This document shows, one piece after another, positions 28,504-48,884 of a stretch of 64,000 nt of DNA. The position numbers were made by a program, and so were the translations under genes. The stretch comes from Ostreococcus lucimarinus. Taxonomy: Eukaryota. The notes below the pieces were generated by a model. That model was not told the DNA's origin. It searched no databases and saw nothing but the letters and a program-made list of their open reading frames with translations. The stretch is from NCBI GenBank assembly GCA_000092065.1, contig CP000585.1. The stretch is one strand, 5' to 3'. Positions within the stretch are counted from its first letter, which is position 1; every line of letters starts with the position of its first letter.

Positions 28504-31500
28504 ATGCTGAAGAAACTCGGCAGTCGCAAAGATCGCGTCGTCACGTTCGTCGTCACCGTGCGCACGCTCGAACCGTGGCCCACGCGCGCGTCGGGCCGTC
28601 CCGGACAGTTCGCCATCGGTTGGCAGCGCGGCGCGAATAAACGCGGAACGACGCCCGTGCGCGCGGGCGAACGCTCCGATGACGGCGCGCGCGCGACGTA
28701 CGCGTTCGATCACACGTTTGAGGTCGAGGCGACGGTGCGCAGGGCGGGAAAGACGGGACACAAGGAGAAAACACTGACGCTGTACGTGTTGGCGCTGCCC
28801 GAAGACGCGACGCGCGGACGCGAGGTGACGGCGGCGAAGGTCGGGGCGTGCGACGTCGATCTGGCGAAATACGTCGATCGCACGGAGGATGAGACGATAA
28901 TGATCGACGTGGAGTGCGGCGAAGGGGTGCGACGGGCGGTGGGGACGCCGAAGCTTTCGATTTCCGTGCGCGCGAAGGAGGGCGGCGCGAACGCGGAGGG
29001 ACGCGAGGGCGAGGCGAACGCGGCGAACGCGTCGCCGTTGAAATCACCGACGGCGAGCGAACGCGGGGGCGAGTACCAGTGGGCGTCTTCGAGGTTTCAG
29101 TCGGAGCAGGCGAGCTCTTCGCAGGCGGATCAAGTGGAGGCGTTGACGAGCATGGCGAGCATGTTCAAAAAGCGCGCCGCGCCCGTCGAGGAAACCTCGG
29201 TCGTCGACGACGTCGTCGACGAGGGTTCCGAAGCCACGGCCAATGACGAAGCCGACGTTGAAGCGAATACGGCTCGAGCGGAACTAATCGTCGCGCGGGC
29301 GGCGACGCCGAAATCGGACGAATTTTCGTCGACGCCCGACGGCACTCCCGCGTTGGAGCAAGAAGATCCAGAGTTGACGCGAGCGCGCGACGAATTGTTT
29401 GGTGCGCCACCAAAAGATGCCGCGACGTCACCACGCGGTGACGTCGACTCCGATGGTTTCTTGCTCGATTCGGATCTGGACACCGAGGGCGAAGCGGACG
29501 AAGAGACCCCAGCGGAGTTCACTCGTCCAGTCGAAGAGTCGCCGGCGCGAGACGACTCTGAAAACGCCGCGGAGCAAGCGAGATTGGCCGAAGAAGAGGC
29601 GAGAATACGCGCTGAAGAAGACGCTGCTGTAGCTCGCATCGAAGCCGAACGCAAGGCATTTGAAGAAGAGGAGCGCCAGCTCGAAGAGCAAGCGCGACTC
29701 GAAGCTCAGCGAGCAGAGGAAGAAAGAGTTCGCGTCGACGAGGAAGCGAGGTACGCACGCATGGAAGCCGAACGCGCGCAAGCGGAAGAAGAAGCTCGAA
29801 GGTTGGCGGAAGAGGACGCGCTCTTCGCTGAAAATGCCGAGTATCAAAGACGCGCAGAGGAAGAGCAGCGCCTGCGCGCAGAGGAAGAGCAGCGCCTGCG
29901 CGCAGAGGAAGAGCAGCGCCTGCGCGCAGAGGAAGAGCAGCGCCTGCGCGCAGAGGAAGAGCAGCGCCTGCGCGCAGAGGAAGAGCAGCGCCTGCGCGCA
30001 GAGGAAGAGCGACGATGGGCTATGGAAGCCGAGGCTGAGCGCGCGCGCATCGAAGAAATTGAAAAGGCCCGAGCTCATGAAGCCGAAGCTGCGCGTAGAG
30101 CCGTGGAAGATGAAGACGTGGCGGCGGCGCAAATCGCTTCGATTGCACAGCAAGAACGTCAACAGCTGGCAGAAGAGGAAGCGATTAGAGCCGCTCAGGA
30201 AGAAGAGGAGCGACAGCGATTAGAAGATGAAAATCTTCGCACATCTGAACACGAGGCTCGATTGCAAGAGGAACGAGAACTTCAAGCCGAAGAGAACGCG
30301 AAGGCGGCTGCACGCGGCGACATTGATGTGTACGCTAAAGCAGTCATCACCGAGGGCGCGTCATCTGTCTTATTTTCGGACTCTGCTGACGACGTGACTG
30401 CGTTTGGTACACCGTCATCGCACAGCGACGACGCGTTCTACACTCCAGCCACTCGCGGGACGCGTTTCGCGGATTCGGTGCTTAAATCATCTCGCAATCG
30501 CGATTTGGAACACGAGATCGTGAGTATGTCCATTTGTGATATTCTCATTCACAGCACTGCGGAGGATTCGAGCTTCACTACCGCTCTTGGTCTTCAAGAA
30601 CGAATTGCGAGCGTGCGCGCCACGCTCGGAGAGCGCGAGTCTCAACTCGAGTTCAACAGAATCACGGACGCTTTCGGTGTCGCGATTAAAGGGGCGATGC
30701 ATAATCCAGCACGACTCGTGTTCTTATGTGCTCAGCTTATCGCGCTGCGAATTTGCGTGGCCACGATGGATGACTTGGACACGCGCGACGTGATCGAACT
30801 CGAAGTCTTGGCTCGAAACGCCGCGTTTGAGTCGCTCTGGAAGCACACTTGCAGTGCATTAGTAAACCCTGGCGAAGTGACGGAAACGCTCGCACACTTC
30901 ATGAAATCCTTCTGTGGGCCTTCGCCGAATGGAGATGGTGAGAAGATAGGTCGCGCCTGGTCTGCAATGTTTCAGCTCGCCAAGACGCGACTCGACATCA
31001 TCGGTGGCGACGCCGACGACGCCGGCTGCTCTTCGCAACTACTATTGACGCAGCTCCGACAAGGCATCTTGAAGGAGATTATTCTTGCACTTGACAAGTC
31101 TGTATTAGATGCATTGATTCATCCGTCTGGCGATGCCCTGGCAAACCCGATGATACCCGGTGGCGGCGCGTTGACGTTTTCAGCGGGTGCCGAATTGAAG
31201 CGAGCAATTTCTGTACTCGCCAGCGTCGCCAAAGATCTCAACGTTGGCACGAGTACTGAATCGATCATCCCGAAACTCAGAGCCGTCGCAGATGTGTGCA
31301 TGATTCCGAAGGACGCATTGATTGACGTCAAGCTTCGCACGGATATCGTGTGCGGCAAACTCACGGACGAGGAACTTGCCAGCGTCGTCTCGCGATTCCG
31401 CCCTGACGATTTCGCGCCCCAACCCGTGGACCCGGACGTCATCTCCGCCGTCGTCGACGCGGCGACGAATGGAAAGGGTGACACGCCCCCCGCGATCGGA

Positions 31501-36739: not shown

Positions 36740-37807
36740 ATGATGGTCGGGATGCGATTCGGTTCGACGGAGTTTCGACAAAAGTACGACTTCGTCGCGC
36801 AGTTGACGCCCGAGGACGGGGCGAAGATTTGCCGCCAGGTGAGCTTTTATTTCAGCGACTCCAACATCGGGCGAGACGACTATCTGCTTCGCGAAGTGGT
36901 CAAATCAAAGCGCGAGGGACACGATGGAGCGGTGGAATTGGCGACGATCGCGCGGTTTCAGAAGATGCGAGAGTTGCTTGCGCCGTATGGTGGGTACGAC
37001 AATTTCTCGGCGATGATGCCAAAGGTGGCCGAAGCGCTCTCGCAGTCAGACATCGTGGAGGCGTGCGAAAACGGAACGCGGGTGAAGAGAAAATCTTTGA
37101 CGATCGATGGGAAGGAGCCCGATTTTTCTACGGATGAAGGCATGCTTCAATACCGTCAAGCGATGATGGTTGAGCTCGATAAGCGATACGTTTTTGCGAG
37201 CCCGTTCTCGAGGCACGCGACGATGGATTCGATCCGAGCCTTCTTCGACGGCGTCGGCCAAGTCAAATCGATTCGCCTGCGACGACACACGGCTAGTAAA
37301 GATTTCCGTGGAAGCGTTTTCGTCGAGTTCGCGACGGAGGAAGAGGCGAGACACGTCGCCGCGCGCACTGATTTGGTGCACGAGGGCGCGAAAATTGAGC
37401 TCGCGATGAAGTCTGATTACCTCGAGAAGAAGAAGGCGGAGTCGCTCTTACAAAAGGAGAAGCGCCGGCAAGAAGCCATAGCGCGGGGCCAGGATCCGGA
37501 GAATATCCCGCCCGAACCCGAACCTGTTTACGTGGGCAAAGTTCCTGAAGGCTTCGTTCCCGGCCGAGGCGGCGGACGAGGCGGCGGACGAGGCGGTGGA
37601 CGAGGCGGCGGACGAGGCGGCGGACGAGGCGGCGGACGAGGCGGCGGACGAGGCGGCGATCGAGGTGGCGATTTCGGTCACGATGGTCCCGGTCGGGGTC
37701 CTGGATTCGGGTACGGTGGTCCGGATCGCGGTGCGCCTCGCTTCGGATTCGGCGCTCCCGGTCCCCAACGACCCGGCCCTCCACAGCGATTCGGACGCCC
37801 ATACTGA
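36740..37807 (+). CDS. La protein (La motif + RRM + RGG-repeat tail)
   Basis: La motif 'ICRQVSFYFSDSNIGRDDYLLREV'. RRM with 'FRGSVFVEFATEEEA'. C-terminal (GRGGG)n repeat. Confidence 0.85.
   Translation: MMVGMRFGSTEFRQKYDFVAQLTPEDGAKICRQVSFYFSDSNIGRDDYLLREVVKSKREGHDGAVELATIARFQKMRELLAPYGGYDNFSAMMPKVAEALSQSDIVEACENGTRVKRKSLTIDGKEPDFSTDEGMLQYRQAMMVELDKRYVFASPFSRHATMDSIRAFFDGVGQVKSIRLRRHTASKDFRGSVFVEFATEEEARHVAARTDLVHEGAKIELAMKSDYLEKKKAESLLQKEKRRQEAIARGQDPENIPPEPEPVYVGKVPEGFVPGRGGGRGGGRGGGRGGGRGGGRGGGRGGGRGGDRGGDFGHDGPGRGPGFGYGGPDRGAPRFGFGAPGPQRPGPPQRFGRPY
37568..37660. repeat. 15-bp tandem repeat (ggcggcggacgaggc) x6 encoding the RGG/GGRGG box of La
   Basis: Direct repeats are visible. The translated product is GRGGGRGGGRGGG... 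Confidence 0.85.
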
Positions 37808-40623: not shown

Positions 40624-42111
40624 CTAGAGTAACATCGTCATCGGATCTTCTAAATAACACTTGAAGGATTGAAGCCACTGCGCCCCCACGGCTCCATCCA
40701 CGACGCGATGATCGCAGCTCAAAGTCGCGCTCATTACCAAGACTTCCTCGTAGCCGCCCTCTGCGTTCTTGACGACTTCCTTTCTAGCTCCGCCGACGGC
40801 GAGGATCGCCGCTTGCGGCGGGTTTACGATCGCAGCGAAGTTCTTCACGCCGAACATGCCGAGGTTGCTAATGGTAAACGTGCCTCCAGTCATGTCCTGG
40901 GGCGTGAGAGAGCCGCTGCGCGCGCGGCCGGCGAGCGACTTGACTTCGGCGCTGATAGACTTCAACCCCAGGCAGCACGCAGATCGCACGATGGGCACCA
41001 TCAGCCCGCGCTCGGTCTGCACCGCTACAGAAATATCAGCTTTTTTGTACTTGCGAATCTTATCGCCCAACCAGCTGGCGTTCACGTCCGGCACCGCGAG
41101 CAACGCCTTGGCGCTCGCCTTGACGATGAAATCGTTCACGCTAATCTTCGCCCCTTCCGCAGCCTTATCATCAGCGAGCTGCTTGTTCAACGTTTCACGA
41201 ATCCCCATCATGTTATCCAAGCGCACGTCTACGGTGAGATAGAAATGCGGCAGTTGCTGCTTGCTTTCCGTCAAGCGCTCCGCGGTGACGCGCTTGATGG
41301 CGCTCACGCTCACGTCTTCGAAATCCGGGAAAAACTTGGACAACGGATGTTCCGCCACAACCGTGTGCGTCACCGCCTCACTCGCGCTCGACGCGCGCGC
41401 CGTGAGCACGTCCTCGGCGATCACGCGCCCGTTCGGCCCACTCCCGCTCACGGTCTCCAATCGCACGCCTCGTTCCTCGGCCAACCGTCTCGCCAGCGGC
41501 GACGCGAACACCCGTTCCCCGCTCGCGCGCGCGCTCATCCGCGCCGTCGCGCGCGTCGACGCCCTCACCACCGGCATCGTCACCGCCGTCTCCACCGCGC
41601 TCTTCGCCGGTTCCGTCGTCACCGTCTCCGTCGCTTTATAATCCTTAAACGCCGCCACCGCGCTCGCCTCCTCGCACATCACGCACACCGGCGTCCCCAC
41701 CTCCACGTCCGTCGCTCCCTCGGGCACCAGGATCGCCGCCAGGTACCCATCATCCGTCGCTTCCATCGCCATCGTCGCCTTATCCGTCTCCACGTCCGCG
41801 ATCGCGTCGCCGGCTTTGATTTCATCGCCGATCGCGCGATGCCACCGCGCGATCCCACCGCGCTCCATCGTCGGCGACAGCGCCGGCATCGGCAGCACGA
41901 CGTGCTCGGGGAGCGTCGACGACGACGACGCGAATCGCGCGCGCGCGGACGCGTCGAGCGCGGCGCGCGCGGCGCGCGCGCGCGAGGACGCGTCGACGGT
42001 CGCGCGCGCGAACGTCGAGGCGCGCGCGCGCGACGACGACGACGACGACGACGACGCCGGCGCGGGCGCGCGCGCGGCGGCGACGACGGCGCGAGCGAGC
42101 GCGCGACGCAT
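40624..42111 (-). CDS. DLAT: Dihydrolipoamide acetyltransferase, E2 component of pyruvate dehydrogenase (mitochondrial)
   Basis: Lipoyl domain 'PMPALSPTMERGGIARWH...IADVETDKATMAMEA', E3-binding region, catalytic domain ending 'DHRVVDGAVGAQWL'. Ser/Ala/Arg-rich presequence. Confidence 0.9.
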   Translation of the reverse strand: MRRALARAVVAAARAPAPASSSSSSSSRARASTFARATVDASSRARAARAALDASARARFASSSSTLPEHVVLPMPALSPTMERGGIARWHRAIGDEIKAGDAIADVETDKATMAMEATDDGYLAAILVPEGATDVEVGTPVCVMCEEASAVAAFKDYKATETVTTEPAKSAVETAVTMPVVRASTRATARMSARASGERVFASPLARRLAEERGVRLETVSGSGPNGRVIAEDVLTARASSASEAVTHTVVAEHPLSKFFPDFEDVSVSAIKRVTAERLTESKQQLPHFYLTVDVRLDNMMGIRETLNKQLADDKAAEGAKISVNDFIVKASAKALLAVPDVNASWLGDKIRKYKKADISVAVQTERGLMVPIVRSACCLGLKSISAEVKSLAGRARSGSLTPQDMTGGTFTISNLGMFGVKNFAAIVNPPQAAILAVGGARKEVVKNAEGGYEEVLVMSATLSCDHRVVDGAVGAQWLQSFKCYLEDPMTMLL

Positions 42112-42377
42112 CGCGCGCGCGTCGCGGCGAGCGTCGCTCGGGCGACGCGCGAGGACGTGTGCGGACGACGCGTCGGGCGCGCGTCGCGTCGAGGGCTACT
42201 CCCGGGTGTTTCGGGCGCGCGCGTCGTCGCGCGCCGCGCGTCCGACGGCGCGGCGCGATGATCGATCGAATCTGCGCGAGGAATACGCATCGCTAACTAC
42301 GCTAGAGCTAATCTACGGTCGTCGCGAACGCGCGCGCGTCGCGCGACGATTCGGCGGCGGCGCGCGCCGCGAGCGCG

Positions 42378-42989
42378 CTACGCGTCGGCGACGGCGCGGC
42401 GACCCGGCGGTAACGCCGGTTTCTTCCGCACTATCGGCGGCGCCGGCGGGTCGTCGTTCGCGCGCACGCCGTCACCGTCGCCGTCGCGCGTCCCTCTGGG
42501 AGCCGCCGCCGCGGGCGCCGCGCGAAGCGTCGTCGCCGCCAACCGTCTCGCGACTTCGGACGCCGGCGTCGCCGCCGCGCCCACGCGCACCGTCACCGCC
42601 TCGCTCGGATCGAACTCCACGAATTTCGGCGCCCTCGCCGCGACGTCGGACGTCGACCGCGCGTCGAGGTCGACGCGCGCGTCCCGCGCCGCGCGTTCCC
42701 GCGTCCCGACCGCGTCGCCGCCGCCGCGCGCCGCCGCGCGCACCTCTCCCGCGTTCGCCAGCGCCACCCCACTCGTCGTCCGCGCCAGCGCCGCGCGCGC
42801 GACCGCGACCGTCGCGCCGCGCTCGACGTCCTCGATCGTCGCCACCCCGGTCCAGCGCTCGCGCTCGACGACGACGACCTCACCGTCACCCGTCGCGAGC
42901 CGCAGTTTGAGCGTGCGACTCGCGCGCGCGTCCTCGCGCGCGCGCGCGCCGCGCGCGACGTCGCGCGCGTCCACGACGCGCAGCGCGAC

Positions 42990-43026
<37 letters not shown>

Positions 43027-43049
43027 CGCGCGACGCCCGACGGACGCAT
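42378..43049 (-). CDS. Hypothetical protein (low-complexity, Asp/Gly and Ala/Arg-rich)
   Basis: ATG-initiated 223-aa ORF filling the ~1-kb gap between PDH-E2 and the SUN gene. Its start is 49 bp from the SUN ATG (divergent). Composition is only weakly protein-like. Confidence 0.3.
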
Positions 43050-43097
43050 TGTGCGGCCGACCGACCGACCGACCGACGCGTCACAACGCCGCGCGCG

Positions 43098-43247
43098 ATG
43101 CCCGCACGCGCGCCGGCGAGGACGCGCGCGCCGGCGACGAGCGCGGAGACGCGCGCGAAAAGCGCGACGCGCGCGCGCGGAGACGCGCGCGACACGCGCG
43201 GCGCGGACGCGCGCGATGATGATTTAAACGAAAAAGATGACCGTTCG

Positions 43248-43280
<33 letters not shown>

Positions 43281-46200
43281 TGCGACGACGCGTGGGGCGT
43301 CGCGCGCGGCGAGCGAGACGTGCGCGCGGGAATGATACGCGTGCGGAGCACGGTGCCGCTGATCGTGAGCACGCTGTGCGTGGTGGTGACGGCGCTCATC
43401 GCGGTGTGCGCGCAGAGCTGGCACGTGCGCGAGACGGCGATGCGGTTGGCGAGCGTGCGATTGAGCGCGACGAGCGTGAAGCTCGGACCGACGACGAGAC
43501 GGTTGACAGCGCTCGAGGATGCGGTGAGGAGATTGGAGAGCGAGAAGGCGAGCGTGCGCGCGGTGGATGGGGTGAAGGCGACGGTGGAGGCGGAGCGCGC
43601 GGCGAACGCGGCGAACGCGGCGACGACGACGACGGACGCGAAGGTCGTCAAGACGGAGATGAAGGCGGAGTTGAAATCGGTTTTGGCGCAGATTGATGCG
43701 TTGAGTAAGCGACAAAATAGTTTCGTGACGACCGCGGAGCTTAAGAAGAGCAGTGGCGCTCTCAAGGCGGAGCTCGCGGAACTCGAAAAGACGGCCGCGG
43801 CGCTCGAAAAGAAGCAAGCGAACTTCGCGGCCAAGACGGAGCTCGCGTCGCTCGAGAAGACCACCGCGGCGCTCGACAAGGGACAAGCCAATTTCGTCAC
43901 CAAAGCGCAGCTTCAAAAGGTGAACGTCGCGAACGATCTCGCACTGTCTGCTGAGCGCTTACGAATCGACGACGCCATCAAGGAGGCCAAGTCGCTTCGA
44001 GACGCCATCGACGCCGTATCCAAGAGCTTGGCGCAGATTGATGCGTTGAGTAAGCGACAAAATAGTTTCGTGACGACCGCGGAGCTTAAGAAGAGCAGTG
44101 GCGCTCTCAAGGCGGAGCTCGCGGAACTCGAAAAGACGGCCGCGGCGCTCGAAAAGAAGCAAGCGAACTTCGCGGCCAAGACGGAGCTCGCGTCGCTCGA
44201 GAAGACCACCGCGGCGCTCGACAAGGGACAAGCCAATTTCGTCACCAAAGCGCAGCTTCAAAAGGTGAACGTCGCGAACGATCTCGCACTGTCTGCTGAG
44301 CGCTTACGAATCGACGACGCCATCAAGGAGGCCAAGTCGCTTCGAGACGCCATCGACGCCGTATCCAAGAGCTTGGCGCAGATTGATGCGTTGAGTAAGC
44401 GACAAAATAGTTTCGTGACGACCGCGGAGCTTAAGAAGAGCAGTGGCGCTCTCAAGGCGGAGCTCGCGGAACTCGAAAAGACGGCCGCGGCGCTCGAAAA
44501 GAAGCAAGCGAACTTCGCGGCCAAGACGGAGCTCGCGTCGCTCGAGAAGACCACCGCGGCGCTCGACAAGGGACAAGCCAATTTCGTCACCAAAGCGCAG
44601 CTTCAAAAGGTGAACGTCGCGAACGATCTCGCACTGTCTGCTGAGCGCTTACGAATCGACGACGCCATCAAGGAGGCCAAGTCGCTTCGAGACGCCATCG
44701 ACGCCGTATCCAAGAGCTTGGCGCAGATTGATGCGTTGAGTAAGCGACAAAATAGTTTCGTGACGACCGCGGAGCTTAAGAAGAGCAGTGGCGCTCTCAA
44801 GGCGGAGCTCGCGGAACTCGAAAAGACGGCCGCGGCGCTCGAAAAGAAGCAAGCGAACTTCGCGGCCAAGACGGAGCTCGCGTCGCTCGAGAAGACCACC
44901 GCGGCGCTCGACAAGGGACAAGCCAATTTCGTCACCAAAGCGCAGCTTCAAAAGGTGAACGTCGCGAACGATCTCGCACTGTCTGCTGAGCGCTTACGAA
45001 TCGACGACGCCATCAAGGAGGCCAAGTCGCTTCGAGACGCCATCGACGCCGTATCCAAGAGCCAGGACGTCTTCATCACGAATACTACTCTCCGACGAGT
45101 GGAGTCACAAATCGAAGCGCTGAAGAAGATGCAAGCAAAGAAGGGATTCTTCTCAACACGGCCGAAAGGGCCGGTCGTTTCCGACGAGCAGATTGCGATG
45201 CTCGAGGCCACGGTTGCTACTTTTGCGACACATTTGGCGGATTTGGAAAAGAACCAAGCCGACTTCGTGACCACAGCGCAACTGCAAAAGTTCGAGGGCG
45301 CTTCGGAGGAAATCAAGTCGCTCCAGAGGGAAATTCACGTTGTTTCCAAGAAGCAAGCCAACTACGTCAGCGTGGCGCAATTACAAAAGCTCGAAGTGGT
45401 GACGGATGAAATTAAATCGCTGCAGAGTGAGATTTCGGCGCTCGCTAAGACGCAAGACGAGTTTGCTATTCTCAGCGCGAGTCTTAAGGATGTTGAGAGT
45501 AAGATCGCGGCGTTGGCGGATGGTAAGAAGAAGACCGGGCTCCTCTCTAAGCTTTCGAAGAAGACAGACACCAAGGTCACCAACAAGCAACTTGTTGAGC
45601 TCGAGAACGCTGTCGCGACGTTGGAGAAGACTCAGACGAAATTCGCTTCGCTTGCGAGTTCACAGATCAGCACGTTGGAGTCTACTCTTGATGCGATTTC
45701 GCAGCAGCAATCCAGTGCGCTCACAGCTGCTGATTTGAAGAGTATTCAAAAGGCCATCACGGCGCTGGAGAAGAGTCAGGAAAGTTTCGCGACGACTGCA
45801 CAGCTACAGAAAGTGGATGCATCTCGAGAGATCAAGGCTTTGGAAGAAGCTTTAGCGGAGATTCTACAGAGTCAGCATTCGTTTGCGAACTCGACTGCCG
45901 TCGAAGAGCTTGAGACGAAAGTCATGGCACTCGAAGCTCGACAAAACGAAAAGCGCGGTGGGATGTTCAAGCGAAGCGCGAGCACCGACACCTCTGTCAC
46001 CAATAAGCAACTCAAGGCTTTAGAAGACACCATCGCGGCCCTGACGAAGAGTCAAGCGGACTTCGCCACGGTTACCCAGCTGAAAGAAAGTGCGCAGGCG
46101 CTTTCGCAACAGCAAGCCGGCGCGCTTACGGCGGCTGACTTGAAGGGCATTCAAAAAGCAGTCGCGTCGCTAGAAAAGAGTCAGAACGGTTTCGCGACGA

Positions 46201-48128
46201 CGGCGCAATTACAAAAGCTCGAAGTGGTGACAGATGAAATTAAATCGCTGCAGAGTGAGATTTCGGCGCTCGCTAAGACGCAAGACGAGTTTGCTATTCT
46301 CAGCGCGAGTCTTAAGGATGTTGAGAGTAAGATCGCGGCGTTGGCGGATGGTAAGAAGAAGACCGGGCTCCTCTCTAAGCTTTCGAAGAAGACAGACACC
46401 AAGGTCACCAACAAGCAACTCAAGGCTCTAGAAGACGCCATCGCGGCTCTGACGAAGAGTCAAGCGGACTTCGCCACGGTTACCCAGCTGAAAGAAAGTG
46501 CGCAGGCGCTTTCGCAACAGCAAGCCGGCGCGCTTACGGCGGCTGACTTGAAGGGCATTCAAAAAGCAGTCGCGTCGCTAGAAAAGAGTCAGAACGGTTT
46601 CGCGACGACGGCGCAATTACAAAAGCTCGAAGTGGTGACAGATGAAATTAAATCGCTGCAGAGTGAGATTTCGGCGCTCGCTAAGACGCAAGACGAGTTT
46701 GCTATTCTCAGCGCGAGTCTTAAGGATGTTGAGAGTAAGATCGCGGCGTTGGCGGATGGTAAGAAGAAGACCGGGCTCCTCTCTAAGCTTTCGAAGAAGA
46801 CAGACACCAAGGTCACCAACAAGCAACTCAAGGCTCTAGAAGACGCCATCGCGGCTCTGACGAAGAGTCAAGCGGACTTCGCCACGGTTACCCAGCTGAA
46901 AGAAAGTGCGCAGGCGCTTTCGCAACAGCAAGCCGGCGCGCTTACGGCGGCTGACTTGAAGGGCATTCAAAAAGCAGTCGCGTCGCTAGAAAAGAGTCAG
47001 AACGGTTTCGCGACGACGGCGCAATTACAAAAGCTCGAAGTGGTGACAGATGAAATTAAATCGCTGCAGAGTGAGATTTCGGCGCTCGCTAAGACGCAAG
47101 ACGAGTTTGCTATTCTCAGCGCGAGTCTTAAGGATGTTGAGAGTAAGATCGCGGCGTTGGCGGATGGTAAGAAGAAGACCGGGCTCCTCTCTAAGCTTTC
47201 GAAGAAGACAGACACCAAGGTCACCAACAAGCAACTCAAGGCTCTAGAAGACGCCATCGCGGCTCTGACGAAGAGTCAAGCGGACTTCGCCACGGTTACC
47301 CAGCTGAAAAAGGTTGCCGCCACGTTGGATGCGTTGAAAAACGTGCACGACAATTATGCGACGACGAAACTTGTGAAGAACTTGGAACTCAAGCTGAACC
47401 AGGTGATCAAAACGAGCGGGGGGCTGTCGACGACGCAGACAAATTTGGTGGAGTTAGAGCAAAGAGCGATGGAGCGCGTTGAGAGTTATATTAAAACAAT
47501 CCCGAAAGATACCTCGAGAAAGCTCACGAAACACATCGAGGAGGCTTCGAGTTTGTGGTTTGCGGACAGAACTGGAAGGCAGGACTTCGCGCTCGCTTCA
47601 GGTGGCGGGCGCGTCGTCGGTCACTCTCAGCTTTCGCCGTTTGTAGGCCGTGGCGACGGTCCCATCACGTCGGTGCTTTCGTTCCTTCAATCCGGAGTGC
47701 ATCCGAAGAGCGACGAGTGGTTACTCACGCCGTCTTTGGAGCAACCAGGGGATTGTATCGCGTTGCATTCGTCGACCGGTTATGTTGATGTTCGTTTGCG
47801 TCAGTCTGTGAAAGTGGACGCGGTCACGCTCGAGCACGCGAATAGCTTGAACGCGTACGACTTGCACAGCGCGCCACGAGATGTACAAGTATACGGTTGG
47901 CACGCACGCAAGAAGAGTTGCAAGCATAGCAAACCGCCCAAGTCGTTGATTCCTCTCGGCAACTACACGTACAGTATCAACCGCGGAAGCGTACAAACTT
48001 TCGACGTGGTGTCACCGCAGACCGTCGACCATGTGCGTCTAGTGGTGAAGAACAATCAAGGGCACCAGAAGTGGACGTGCCTGTACCGGTTCCGAGTACA
48101 CGGCGTGCCAGAACGAGTCGAAGCGTGA
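43098..48128 (+). CDS. SUN-domain (Sad1/UNC-84) nuclear-envelope protein with giant repetitive coiled-coil
   Basis: ATG start. Short acidic N-terminus (D13 run). Single TM ('LIVSTLCVVVTALIAVCAQ'). ~1,350 aa Ala/Lys/Glu/Leu-rich coiled coil built from 115-aa and 136-aa tandem units. C-terminal SUN domain ('...ITSVLSFLQSGVHPKSDEWLLTP...GDCIALHSSTGYVDVRLRQSVKVDAVTLEHAN...QKWTCLYRFRVHG'). Confidence 0.85.
43690..45060. repeat. 345-bp tandem repeat, 4 nucleotide-identical copies (115-aa coiled-coil unit 'SLAQIDALSKRQNSFVTTAELKKSSGALKAELAELEKTAAALEKKQANF...')
   Basis: Antisense ORFs at 43913-44248, 44258-44593 and 44603-44938 are identical, giving a 345-bp period. The protein shows four identical 115-aa units. 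Confidence 0.9.
45365..47300. repeat. 408-bp tandem repeat family, 3 identical copies plus divergent flanking partial copies (136-aa unit 'TNKQLKALEDAIAALTKSQADFATVTQLKESAQALSQQQAGALTAADLKGIQKAVASLEKSQNGF...')
   Basis: Antisense ORFs at 46181-46441, 46589-46849 and 46997-47257 are identical, giving a 408-bp period. An earlier diverged copy starts at ~45365. Confidence 0.9.

Positions 48129-48387: not shown

Positions 48388-48884
<497 letters not shown>

Follow-up and report, generated by a model that had tools for sequence, protein, structure and literature searches.

We analysed a 64,000-nucleotide (nt) stretch of Ostreococcus lucimarinus contig CP000585.1 (assembly GCA_000092065.1), referred to below as the window, which carries a gene for a giant SUN-domain protein. 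The gene is an uninterrupted open reading frame (ORF) on the plus strand (43098..48128) with an ATG start, and the ORF list and its translation give a complete, intron-less coding sequence of 1,676 amino acids (aa) plus stop, with a SUN domain at the C-terminal end of the product. An independent gene call, that of the metagenome protein P0258, has the same start (MPARAPARTRAP...), and P0259, from a sister species, begins with the similar MPPRASARK. Perfectly repeated residues account for 883 of the 1,676 aa and for more than half of the linker that joins the transmembrane helix to the SUN domain.

The SUN domain and its N-terminal helix were placed at aa 1480-1676 (47535..48125, +) from Pfam, alignments, AlphaFold2 (AF2) models and Foldseek. 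Pfam family PF07738 (Sad1_UNC) matched aa 1540-1670 (E 1.1e-25, 90.7 bits, cut-off 22), and the match ends 6 aa before the stop, at the extreme C-terminus of the protein. In a phmmer search, the C-terminal 200 aa matched crystal chains of human SUN1 and SUN2 (E ~3e-20). An AF2 model of aa 1176-1676, made with 42 homologs, had block-mean values of the predicted local distance difference test (pLDDT) mostly of 82-97 in the SUN part (range 51-97), and the best PDB matches of this model in Foldseek were SUN2 and SUN1 (E 5e-17, template-modelling (TM) score 0.73-0.77).

The domain has a conserved Cys pair (C1553, C1661) and the motifs PGDC, TLEH, SAPRD and TCLYRFRVHG (CLYRFRVHG). Alignment to SUN1 (5ywz) and SUN2 (4dxt) paired PGDC with PGNC, TLEH with itself, SAPRD with SAPKD, and TCLYRFRVHG with TCIYRFRVHG; from the SUN2-KASH structures, we take these motifs to belong to KASH binding. 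Residues C378, C486, Y488 and R489 of the aligned segment were invariant across the 42 homologs. The domain also carries an insert, KKSCKHSKPPKS, with an extra Cys (aa 1604-1618, ~47907-47951), which was kept in all Ostreococcus-type orthologs and had no counterpart in the aligned human SUN1/2.

Hydropathy analysis gave a sole Kyte-Doolittle peak at aa 84-108 (KD19 2.65) with nothing else above threshold, and the single transmembrane helix was placed at about aa 86-108 (VPLIVSTLCVVVTALIAVCAQSW; 43353..43421, +), where it is kept in the orthologs. The tail before it (aa 1-85; 43098..43352, +) is Arg-rich and then poly-Asp, with 25% D, 19% A and 18% R. It is thus both basic and acidic, and the description of a short acidic N-terminus in the initial annotation holds for the acidic part but not as a solely acidic tail; the same basic-then-acidic order was present in the O. 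tauri protein and in P0259. By analogy with canonical SUN proteins, the tail is presumably nucleoplasmic, and from the family we infer a type II topology that puts the SUN domain inside the lumen. In the three-transmembrane mid-SUN layout (SUN3-5 of plants, Slp1, SUCO), the SUN domain is central and transmembrane helices stand at both ends (PMC7982736), whereas here it is terminal and there is one transmembrane peak. The protein is, with near certainty, a C-terminal SUN (SUN1/2-type) protein, presumably a component of the LINC type (linker of nucleoskeleton and cytoskeleton), and its original assignment as a SUN protein with one transmembrane helix and a C-terminal SUN domain was confirmed by Pfam, phmmer, Foldseek and hydropathy.

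Arrays in the linker were mapped by Tandem Repeats Finder (TRF) and an exact periodicity test. Array A (43683..45062, +; aa 196-655) consists of a 345-nt (115-aa) unit in exactly 4.00 copies, and array B (46041..47309, +; aa 982-1404) of a 408-nt (136-aa) unit in 3.11 copies; both show 100% nucleotide identity between copies, and their TRF scores were 2760 and 2668. The results bore out the claim of two families of nucleotide-perfect repeats, one of 115 aa in four copies and one of 136 aa in at least three, with zero mismatches. Successive A units meet in the junction peptide ...DAVSKSLAQIDAL..., and the array is left through ...DAVSKSQDVF.... Each unit has a length divisible by 3, and no frameshift interrupts the 5 kb of coding sequence. 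In TRF the 408-nt array reached back as far as 45374 (4.7 copies, 83% matches), so that about 1.7 older copies precede the perfect ones; these diverged copies (45374..46040, +; TRF, repeat families D2-D4) are 78-91% identical to the perfect copies. Throughout the linker, from aa 206 to 1394, a motif of about 20 aa, (A/I)xxLxKxQxxF(A/V)TxxQLxK, occurs 29 times. No other array of comparable size was found within the 64-kb window; a perfect 24-nt repeat of 6.7 copies at 29851-30010 (CGCGCAGAGGAAGAGCAGCGCCTG) is the sole other perfect array there.

Three unique segments flank or separate the arrays. A membrane-proximal luminal helix (aa 109-195; 43422..43682, +), recognised by conservation and predicted helical by AF2, is shared with L002/P0259 and O. 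tauri (HxxETAMxLASVRxSATxVxLxPxTRR...). A segment at aa 656-759 (45063..45373, +), delimited by translation and composition, holds the sole internal Pro/Gly-rich break of the linker (KKGFFSTRPKGPVV; Pro 689 and 692) and is homologous to the L002/P0259 stretch ...KKRTSFLTRQKALNV.... The pre-SUN helical stalk (aa 1405-1479; 47310..47534, +), again conserved and helical in AF2, is kept in all Ostreococcus-type orthologs (LEQxxMERVxxYIxTIPKD...).

We then compared the arrays with independent assemblies. Scaffold L001, which is 99.3-99.8% identical to the window, carries two A units with 1 mismatch and has a 100-N gap inside array B. The Joint Genome Institute (JGI) contig L006, taken from a 99.5-kb contig with no N, has two A units without a mismatch and stops at what corresponds to 46167 of the window, shortly after the start of array B. 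In the JGI protein P0249, one residue distinguishes two B units that follow each other (GEKKT in the first, GKKKT in the second). The syntenic scaffolds, of which L002 and L003 are from sister species, are gapped in the repeats by 100 N each (L001:9802-9901, L002:6396-6495, L003:5140-5239), while the window sequence contains no N. Short-read assemblies of the same species had one A unit (P0258, 919 aa) or two (L001, L006) and 1.1 B units (P0256). A metagenome scan for the A-A junction returned one contig, and no long-read contig spanning a whole array.

These comparisons bear on whether the arrays, the identity of their copies or the copy number were made by the assembler or by polishing, the real gene then having each unit once and a product of about 1,060 aa. 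Without the extra copies 1,059 aa are left, a length similar to those of the O. tauri protein (1,067 aa) and P0259 (1,060 aa); the single A unit of P0258 and the 1.1 B units of P0256 come from contigs of the same species, and the O. tauri reference itself has a suspicious out-of-frame 193-nt perfect duplication in its SUN gene. However, the A-A junction is present in two independent assemblies, and two tandem B copies one residue apart stand on an independent contig. All short-read assemblies break or are gapped exactly at the arrays. The window has no N within it, both units consist of whole codons and the gene is open through 5 kb. One or two copies are also what would be expected from a longer real array, since short-read assemblers collapse perfect repeats; two copies are the minimal path through an assembler's repeat cycle.

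We therefore regard an artefact as very unlikely. The A-A junction and distinguishable B copies are present in independent assemblies, these assemblies break at the arrays, and related species have arrays of their own; judged from the sequences, the units are therefore truly in tandem, and the repeated appearance of such arrays within the clade is biological. The assembly artefact that the initial annotation had considered thus lost ground as a pure duplication, although the exact copy numbers are uncorroborated. Every short-read assembly examined was gapped, collapsed or ended in the SUN repeats. Catalogue proteins of 377-919 aa from the same or sister species are truncated or shortened because the assemblies break there, and these public lengths are misleading for the SUN gene in practice. 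Around the 5' part of the gene, the local guanine-plus-cytosine content reaches 0.73 (window 42001-44000) against about 0.60 for the window, and spurious antisense or out-of-frame ORFs of up to 436 aa overlap the gene; gene callers on metagenome scaffolds chose such spurious ORFs, for example a 491-aa minus-strand call in L001.

Synteny was examined in related genomes. The window is collinear with O. tauri chromosome 5 (CAID01000005.2, 476-491 kb) and with scaffolds L001-L003 over the block RPS15-RsfS-TrmO-E2-x-SUN-centrin-TopoVIB-proteasome-TsaD, where E2 is an acetyltransferase and x an ORF without assigned function. The neighbouring TopoVIB shares 99% identity with a large cluster from marine metagenomes; the value is 84-90% for several further clusters and 68% for Bathycoccus and Mantoniella. 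The O. tauri ortholog, XP_022839032.1 / CEF98022.1 (P0227), has 1,067 aa and is annotated 'Sad1/UNC-like, C-terminal'; the last 272 aa of the O. lucimarinus protein are 68% identical to P0018, whose 90% cluster includes XP_022839032.1. The gene family has accordingly been annotated before; we found no description of either protein's arrays in the published literature, and a plant SUN survey mentions O. lucimarinus just in passing (PMC7982736). The 193-nt duplication in the O. tauri SUN gene lies at L004:6858-7244 (2.0 perfect tandem copies, not a multiple of 3), and the XP_022839032.1 gene model is in frame solely via an 'intron' of roughly 49 nt; it may be an assembly or annotation error.

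We estimated the length of the linker between the transmembrane helix and the SUN domain in these proteins. It measures 1,384 aa in the O. lucimarinus protein, 807 aa in O. tauri, 780 aa in P0259, 574 aa in P0260 and 352 aa in P0261, and 225-260 aa (33-39 nm) in three more distant homologs (P0262-P0264). A crude survey of 134 SUN homologs found linkers of no more than about 680 aa outside the Ostreococcus group; the longest of all, 778 aa, belonged to a relative of this protein. The spacer is thus, as first proposed, far longer than is typical, and the stalk is about three to six times the usual SUN length. One further giant SUN protein, P0368 (1,747 aa, ENA), belongs to a cluster that contains a Eurytemora SUN1-like protein; its length is not luminal, because its tandem repeats (RRSRRLQGLPAEVIEELKKARQRRRLERQ...) precede the hydrophobic region and belong to the N-terminal half.

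A word-based search with the linker returned 4 matches only, and in an exhaustive search 5 representatives scored on the linker, after which scores dropped from 407 to 188 bits. By these searches, linker homology is confined to the Ostreococcus-type clade. The related proteins carry arrays of their own, of a 552-nt unit in O. tauri (~2.7 copies, roughly five mismatches), of a 201-nt unit in the L002 species (2.2 copies, 98%) and of a 19-aa unit in P0241 (~12 copies). By an offset-identity scan for internal repeats, each lineage has amplified its own segments of the common linker.

The structure of the linker was assessed by composition, prediction and database searches. Its 1,384 residues include four Pro in total, two of which lie between aa 131 and 1469. 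AF2 predicted linker helices of 14-77 residues separated by short breaks, which coincide with the basic GKKKTGLLSKLSKK loop and with a subset of the Q-x-x-F motifs. Two A units modelled by AF2 without an alignment were helical, with a predicted TM-score (pTM) of 0.22 and no tertiary arrangement, and Foldseek returned no match for this low-confidence model. Pfam matches on the linker (Fer2_2, DUF5932, CATASP, Rbsn, DksA_N and DUF7364) were all below the curated cut-offs and were rejected as sub-threshold noise, and no spectrin family matched the SUN protein in Pfam at E<=0.1. We consider it safe to describe the linker, on the models, as a predicted helical rod. The initial description of the spacer as all predicted coiled coil is consistent with AF2 in its long helices, at low confidence, but the heptad and Fourier tests did not discriminate a coiled coil.

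The predicted breaks also bear on whether the 115- and 136-aa units fold back into helical bundles, resembling either spectrin or the CC2 bundle by which SUN2 is auto-inhibited, so that a chain of compact domains would measure about 50-70 nm rather than form a 200-nm coiled coil. Breaks at some Q-x-x-F motifs and the basic loop would give 3-4 helices per unit, and both units are of a size seen among spectrin repeats, three-helix units of about 106 aa. The mouse SUN2 CC2-SUN structure (5ed8) was among the phmmer and Foldseek matches. On the other hand, no Pfam family reached its curated threshold on the linker, Foldseek was empty for the A-unit model, its pTM points to no tertiary arrangement, and AF2 runs many helices of 50-77 residues straight through the motif. 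A rod of folded bundles therefore appears unlikely to us.

The linker was next compared with the spacing of the nuclear envelope. As one helix (0.1485 nm per residue), 1,384 aa would extend over about 206 nm, and the 807-aa linker of O. tauri over about 120 nm. The lumen of the envelope is usually 30-50 nm wide and the modelled SUN rod is about 45 nm long (PMC4615189), and in O. tauri the inner and outer membranes lie at uneven distances of 18-100 nm from each other (PMC1939878). A stalk of about 206 nm exceeds all of these values, which makes a rigid perpendicular ruler implausible. When about 300 aa were deleted from the UNC-84 linker, the protein still functioned and the envelope became no narrower (PMC4615189). 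Since linker lengths range four-fold among sister lineages, and given this deletion result, the constraint on length appears weak. The suggestion that repeat copy number sets a molecular ruler, read as a rigid one, thus agrees poorly with the data on three counts, namely the extended length, the range of 352-1,384 aa among sister species and the deletion without narrowing.

A looser role of length was also weighed, in which the SUN stalk is the main tether between inner and outer membranes in Ostreococcus and its length sets the largest permitted width of the lumen, so that copy number would tune envelope geometry. Such a role would matter in an envelope with very few pores pinning the membranes together. 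The irregular spacing of 18-100 nm, the gaps hundreds of nm wide and the 1-3 pores per cell reported for the O. tauri envelope are in line with it (PMC1939878), as are the approximate agreement of the 120-nm helix of O. tauri with the largest observed spacing and the occurrence of linkers of 352-1,384 aa in all Ostreococcus-type lineages against 225-260 aa in the three distant homologs. The original ruler proposal, moreover, assumes a rod of about 45 nm (PMC4615189). Against this role, linker length varies by as much as four-fold between sister species, with no known difference in their ultrastructure, and the UNC-84 deletion speaks against a strict ruler. The agreement between 120 and 100 nm comes from one species and assumes a fully extended helix. 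Ostreococcus cells are roughly 1 micrometre across, and 206 nm would be about a fifth of the cell diameter. We hold this role to be improbable; if it were true, copy number would be a fast-evolving, possibly polymorphic dial of about 17-20 nm per unit, and a lumen of up to about 200 nm would be tolerated here against about 120 nm in O. tauri.

Taken as a whole, a canonical SUN protein acting as a flexible, segmented tether of loosely constrained length, in which repeat turnover is tolerated, is the explanation that we consider likely. The protein would be the inner-nuclear-membrane half of a LINC-type bridge. The build of the linker is hierarchical: an old helical motif of about 20 aa was joined into the 115-aa and 136-aa units, and in-frame tandem duplication then multiplied these. 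The last rounds were recent enough, or homogenisation thorough enough, to leave copies without a single nucleotide difference; recent expansion or concerted evolution, as put forward in the initial annotation, is the natural reading of such copies. Unequal recombination or replication slippage between copies could both generate and homogenise the units. The linker would form a segmented, probably trimeric, alpha-helical stalk, kinked at some Q-x-x-F motifs and too long to stand perpendicular, and would connect the inner membrane flexibly, like a leash, to a KASH-type partner. Loose constraint on the length of this stalk would explain why gain or loss of repeats is tolerated.

Several points weigh against this explanation. 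The linker helices were predicted with low confidence (pLDDT 40-70), and the putative trimeric coiled coil is carried over from the SUN family. Heptad occupancy was 0.90 against 0.69 in shuffled sequences at a loose threshold, barely above controls; shuffled sequences score nearly as well because the composition is Ala- and Leu-rich, and the Fourier spectral lines near 3.3 residues arise because perfect repeats create them. The copy numbers 4.00 and 3.11 were seen only in this assembly, and the one or two A units and 1.1 B units of the short-read assemblies could reflect either collapse or real polymorphism. The E/K difference between B copies in natural contigs is absent from the window, and the perfect identity of the copies could have been exaggerated by consensus polishing. 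Finally, long linkers are present in at least five lineages, and their length could equally be selected. The three other accounts given above, namely an assembly artefact, a rod of folded bundles and a stalk that limits lumen width, are not mutually exclusive.

Downstream of the SUN gene, 260 nt from its stop codon, lies a convergent centrin gene (48388..48834, -), identified by its match to caltractin 3kf9 (E 5e-86) and containing four EF-hands. The adjacency noted in the initial annotation is therefore confirmed, and scaffolds L001 and L002, like O. tauri, have centrin next to the SUN gene. The arrangement carries no specific signal, because the genes are convergent and belong to a conserved collinear block of about 10 genes, and is most likely coincidental. 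Shared regulation of SUN and centrin was ruled out on the same grounds, the genes being convergent in a generally collinear block.

A tether between basal body and nucleus, the other role proposed for the spacer, was ruled out on organismal grounds. Whole-cell cryo-tomography of O. tauri showed one or two microtubules and no microtubule organising centre, and centriole and flagellum go unmentioned in that study (PMC1939878); with no centrioles or flagella reported in O. tauri, such a tether would have no substrate. The ruler and basal-body interpretations thus over-reached, while the underlying observation is real and the domain assignment correct.

Upstream, a 223-aa ORF without a Pfam match (window 42378-43049, -) has its ATG 48 nt from the SUN start codon, and O. 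tauri has a 246-aa gene at the same position. It is probably a real gene that shares a very short divergent promoter region with the SUN gene. Elsewhere in the window, an ORF at 36740-37807 (+) ends in a long GGRGGGR (RGG-type) tract, and an Rfam scan of the 64 kb gave no matches.

Whether SUN-KASH bridges act as rulers is unsettled, and the only direct test has been the engineered deletion in C. elegans (PMC4107780, PMC4615189). In Ostreococcus, nature supplies an allelic series suited to this question, with linkers of 352, 574, 780, 807 and 1,384 aa in close lineages and perhaps with variation in linker length within a species too. If length matters, Ostreococcus would be the simplest system in which to show an effect of SUN stalk length; if it does not, the gene would be a clean case of a weakly constrained coiled-coil spacer ballooning by in-frame tandem duplication. 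O. tauri can be modified by gene targeting. Its cells are small enough for whole-cell cryo-tomography (PMC1939878).

We finally compared the protein with known SUN systems. [quoted passage not shown] Land-plant C-terminal SUN proteins (Arabidopsis SUN1/SUN2 type) were the best named matches, with 35-41% identity over the SUN domain, and have the same order of N-terminal tail, transmembrane helix, coiled coil and C-terminal SUN domain (PMC7982736). They measure about 440-470 aa with a short coiled coil, whereas the Ostreococcus linker alone has 1,384 aa.

Animal SUN1, SUN2 and UNC-84 share the SUN fold, the Cys pair, TLEH, SAP(K/R)D, CxYRFRVHG and a helical linker. They differ in their modelled rod of about 45 nm, compared with which the Ostreococcus linker is four to five times longer and repetitive, and human SUN1/2 are without the Ostreococcus insert. 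A Gln in the Ostreococcus SUN domain aligns with one animal SUN Cys, which in the SUN2-KASH structures is the residue that forms the disulfide with KASH. The closest system is O. tauri XP_022839032.1, a positional ortholog in the collinear block that also adjoins centrin and has the basic/acidic N-terminus, one transmembrane helix, a K-x-Q-x-x-F-A-T linker and the SUN domain. It carries its own near-perfect long tandem array, but the 552-nt unit (~2.7 copies) comes from another part of the linker, which measures 807 aa against 1,384 aa and is about 25-36% identical.

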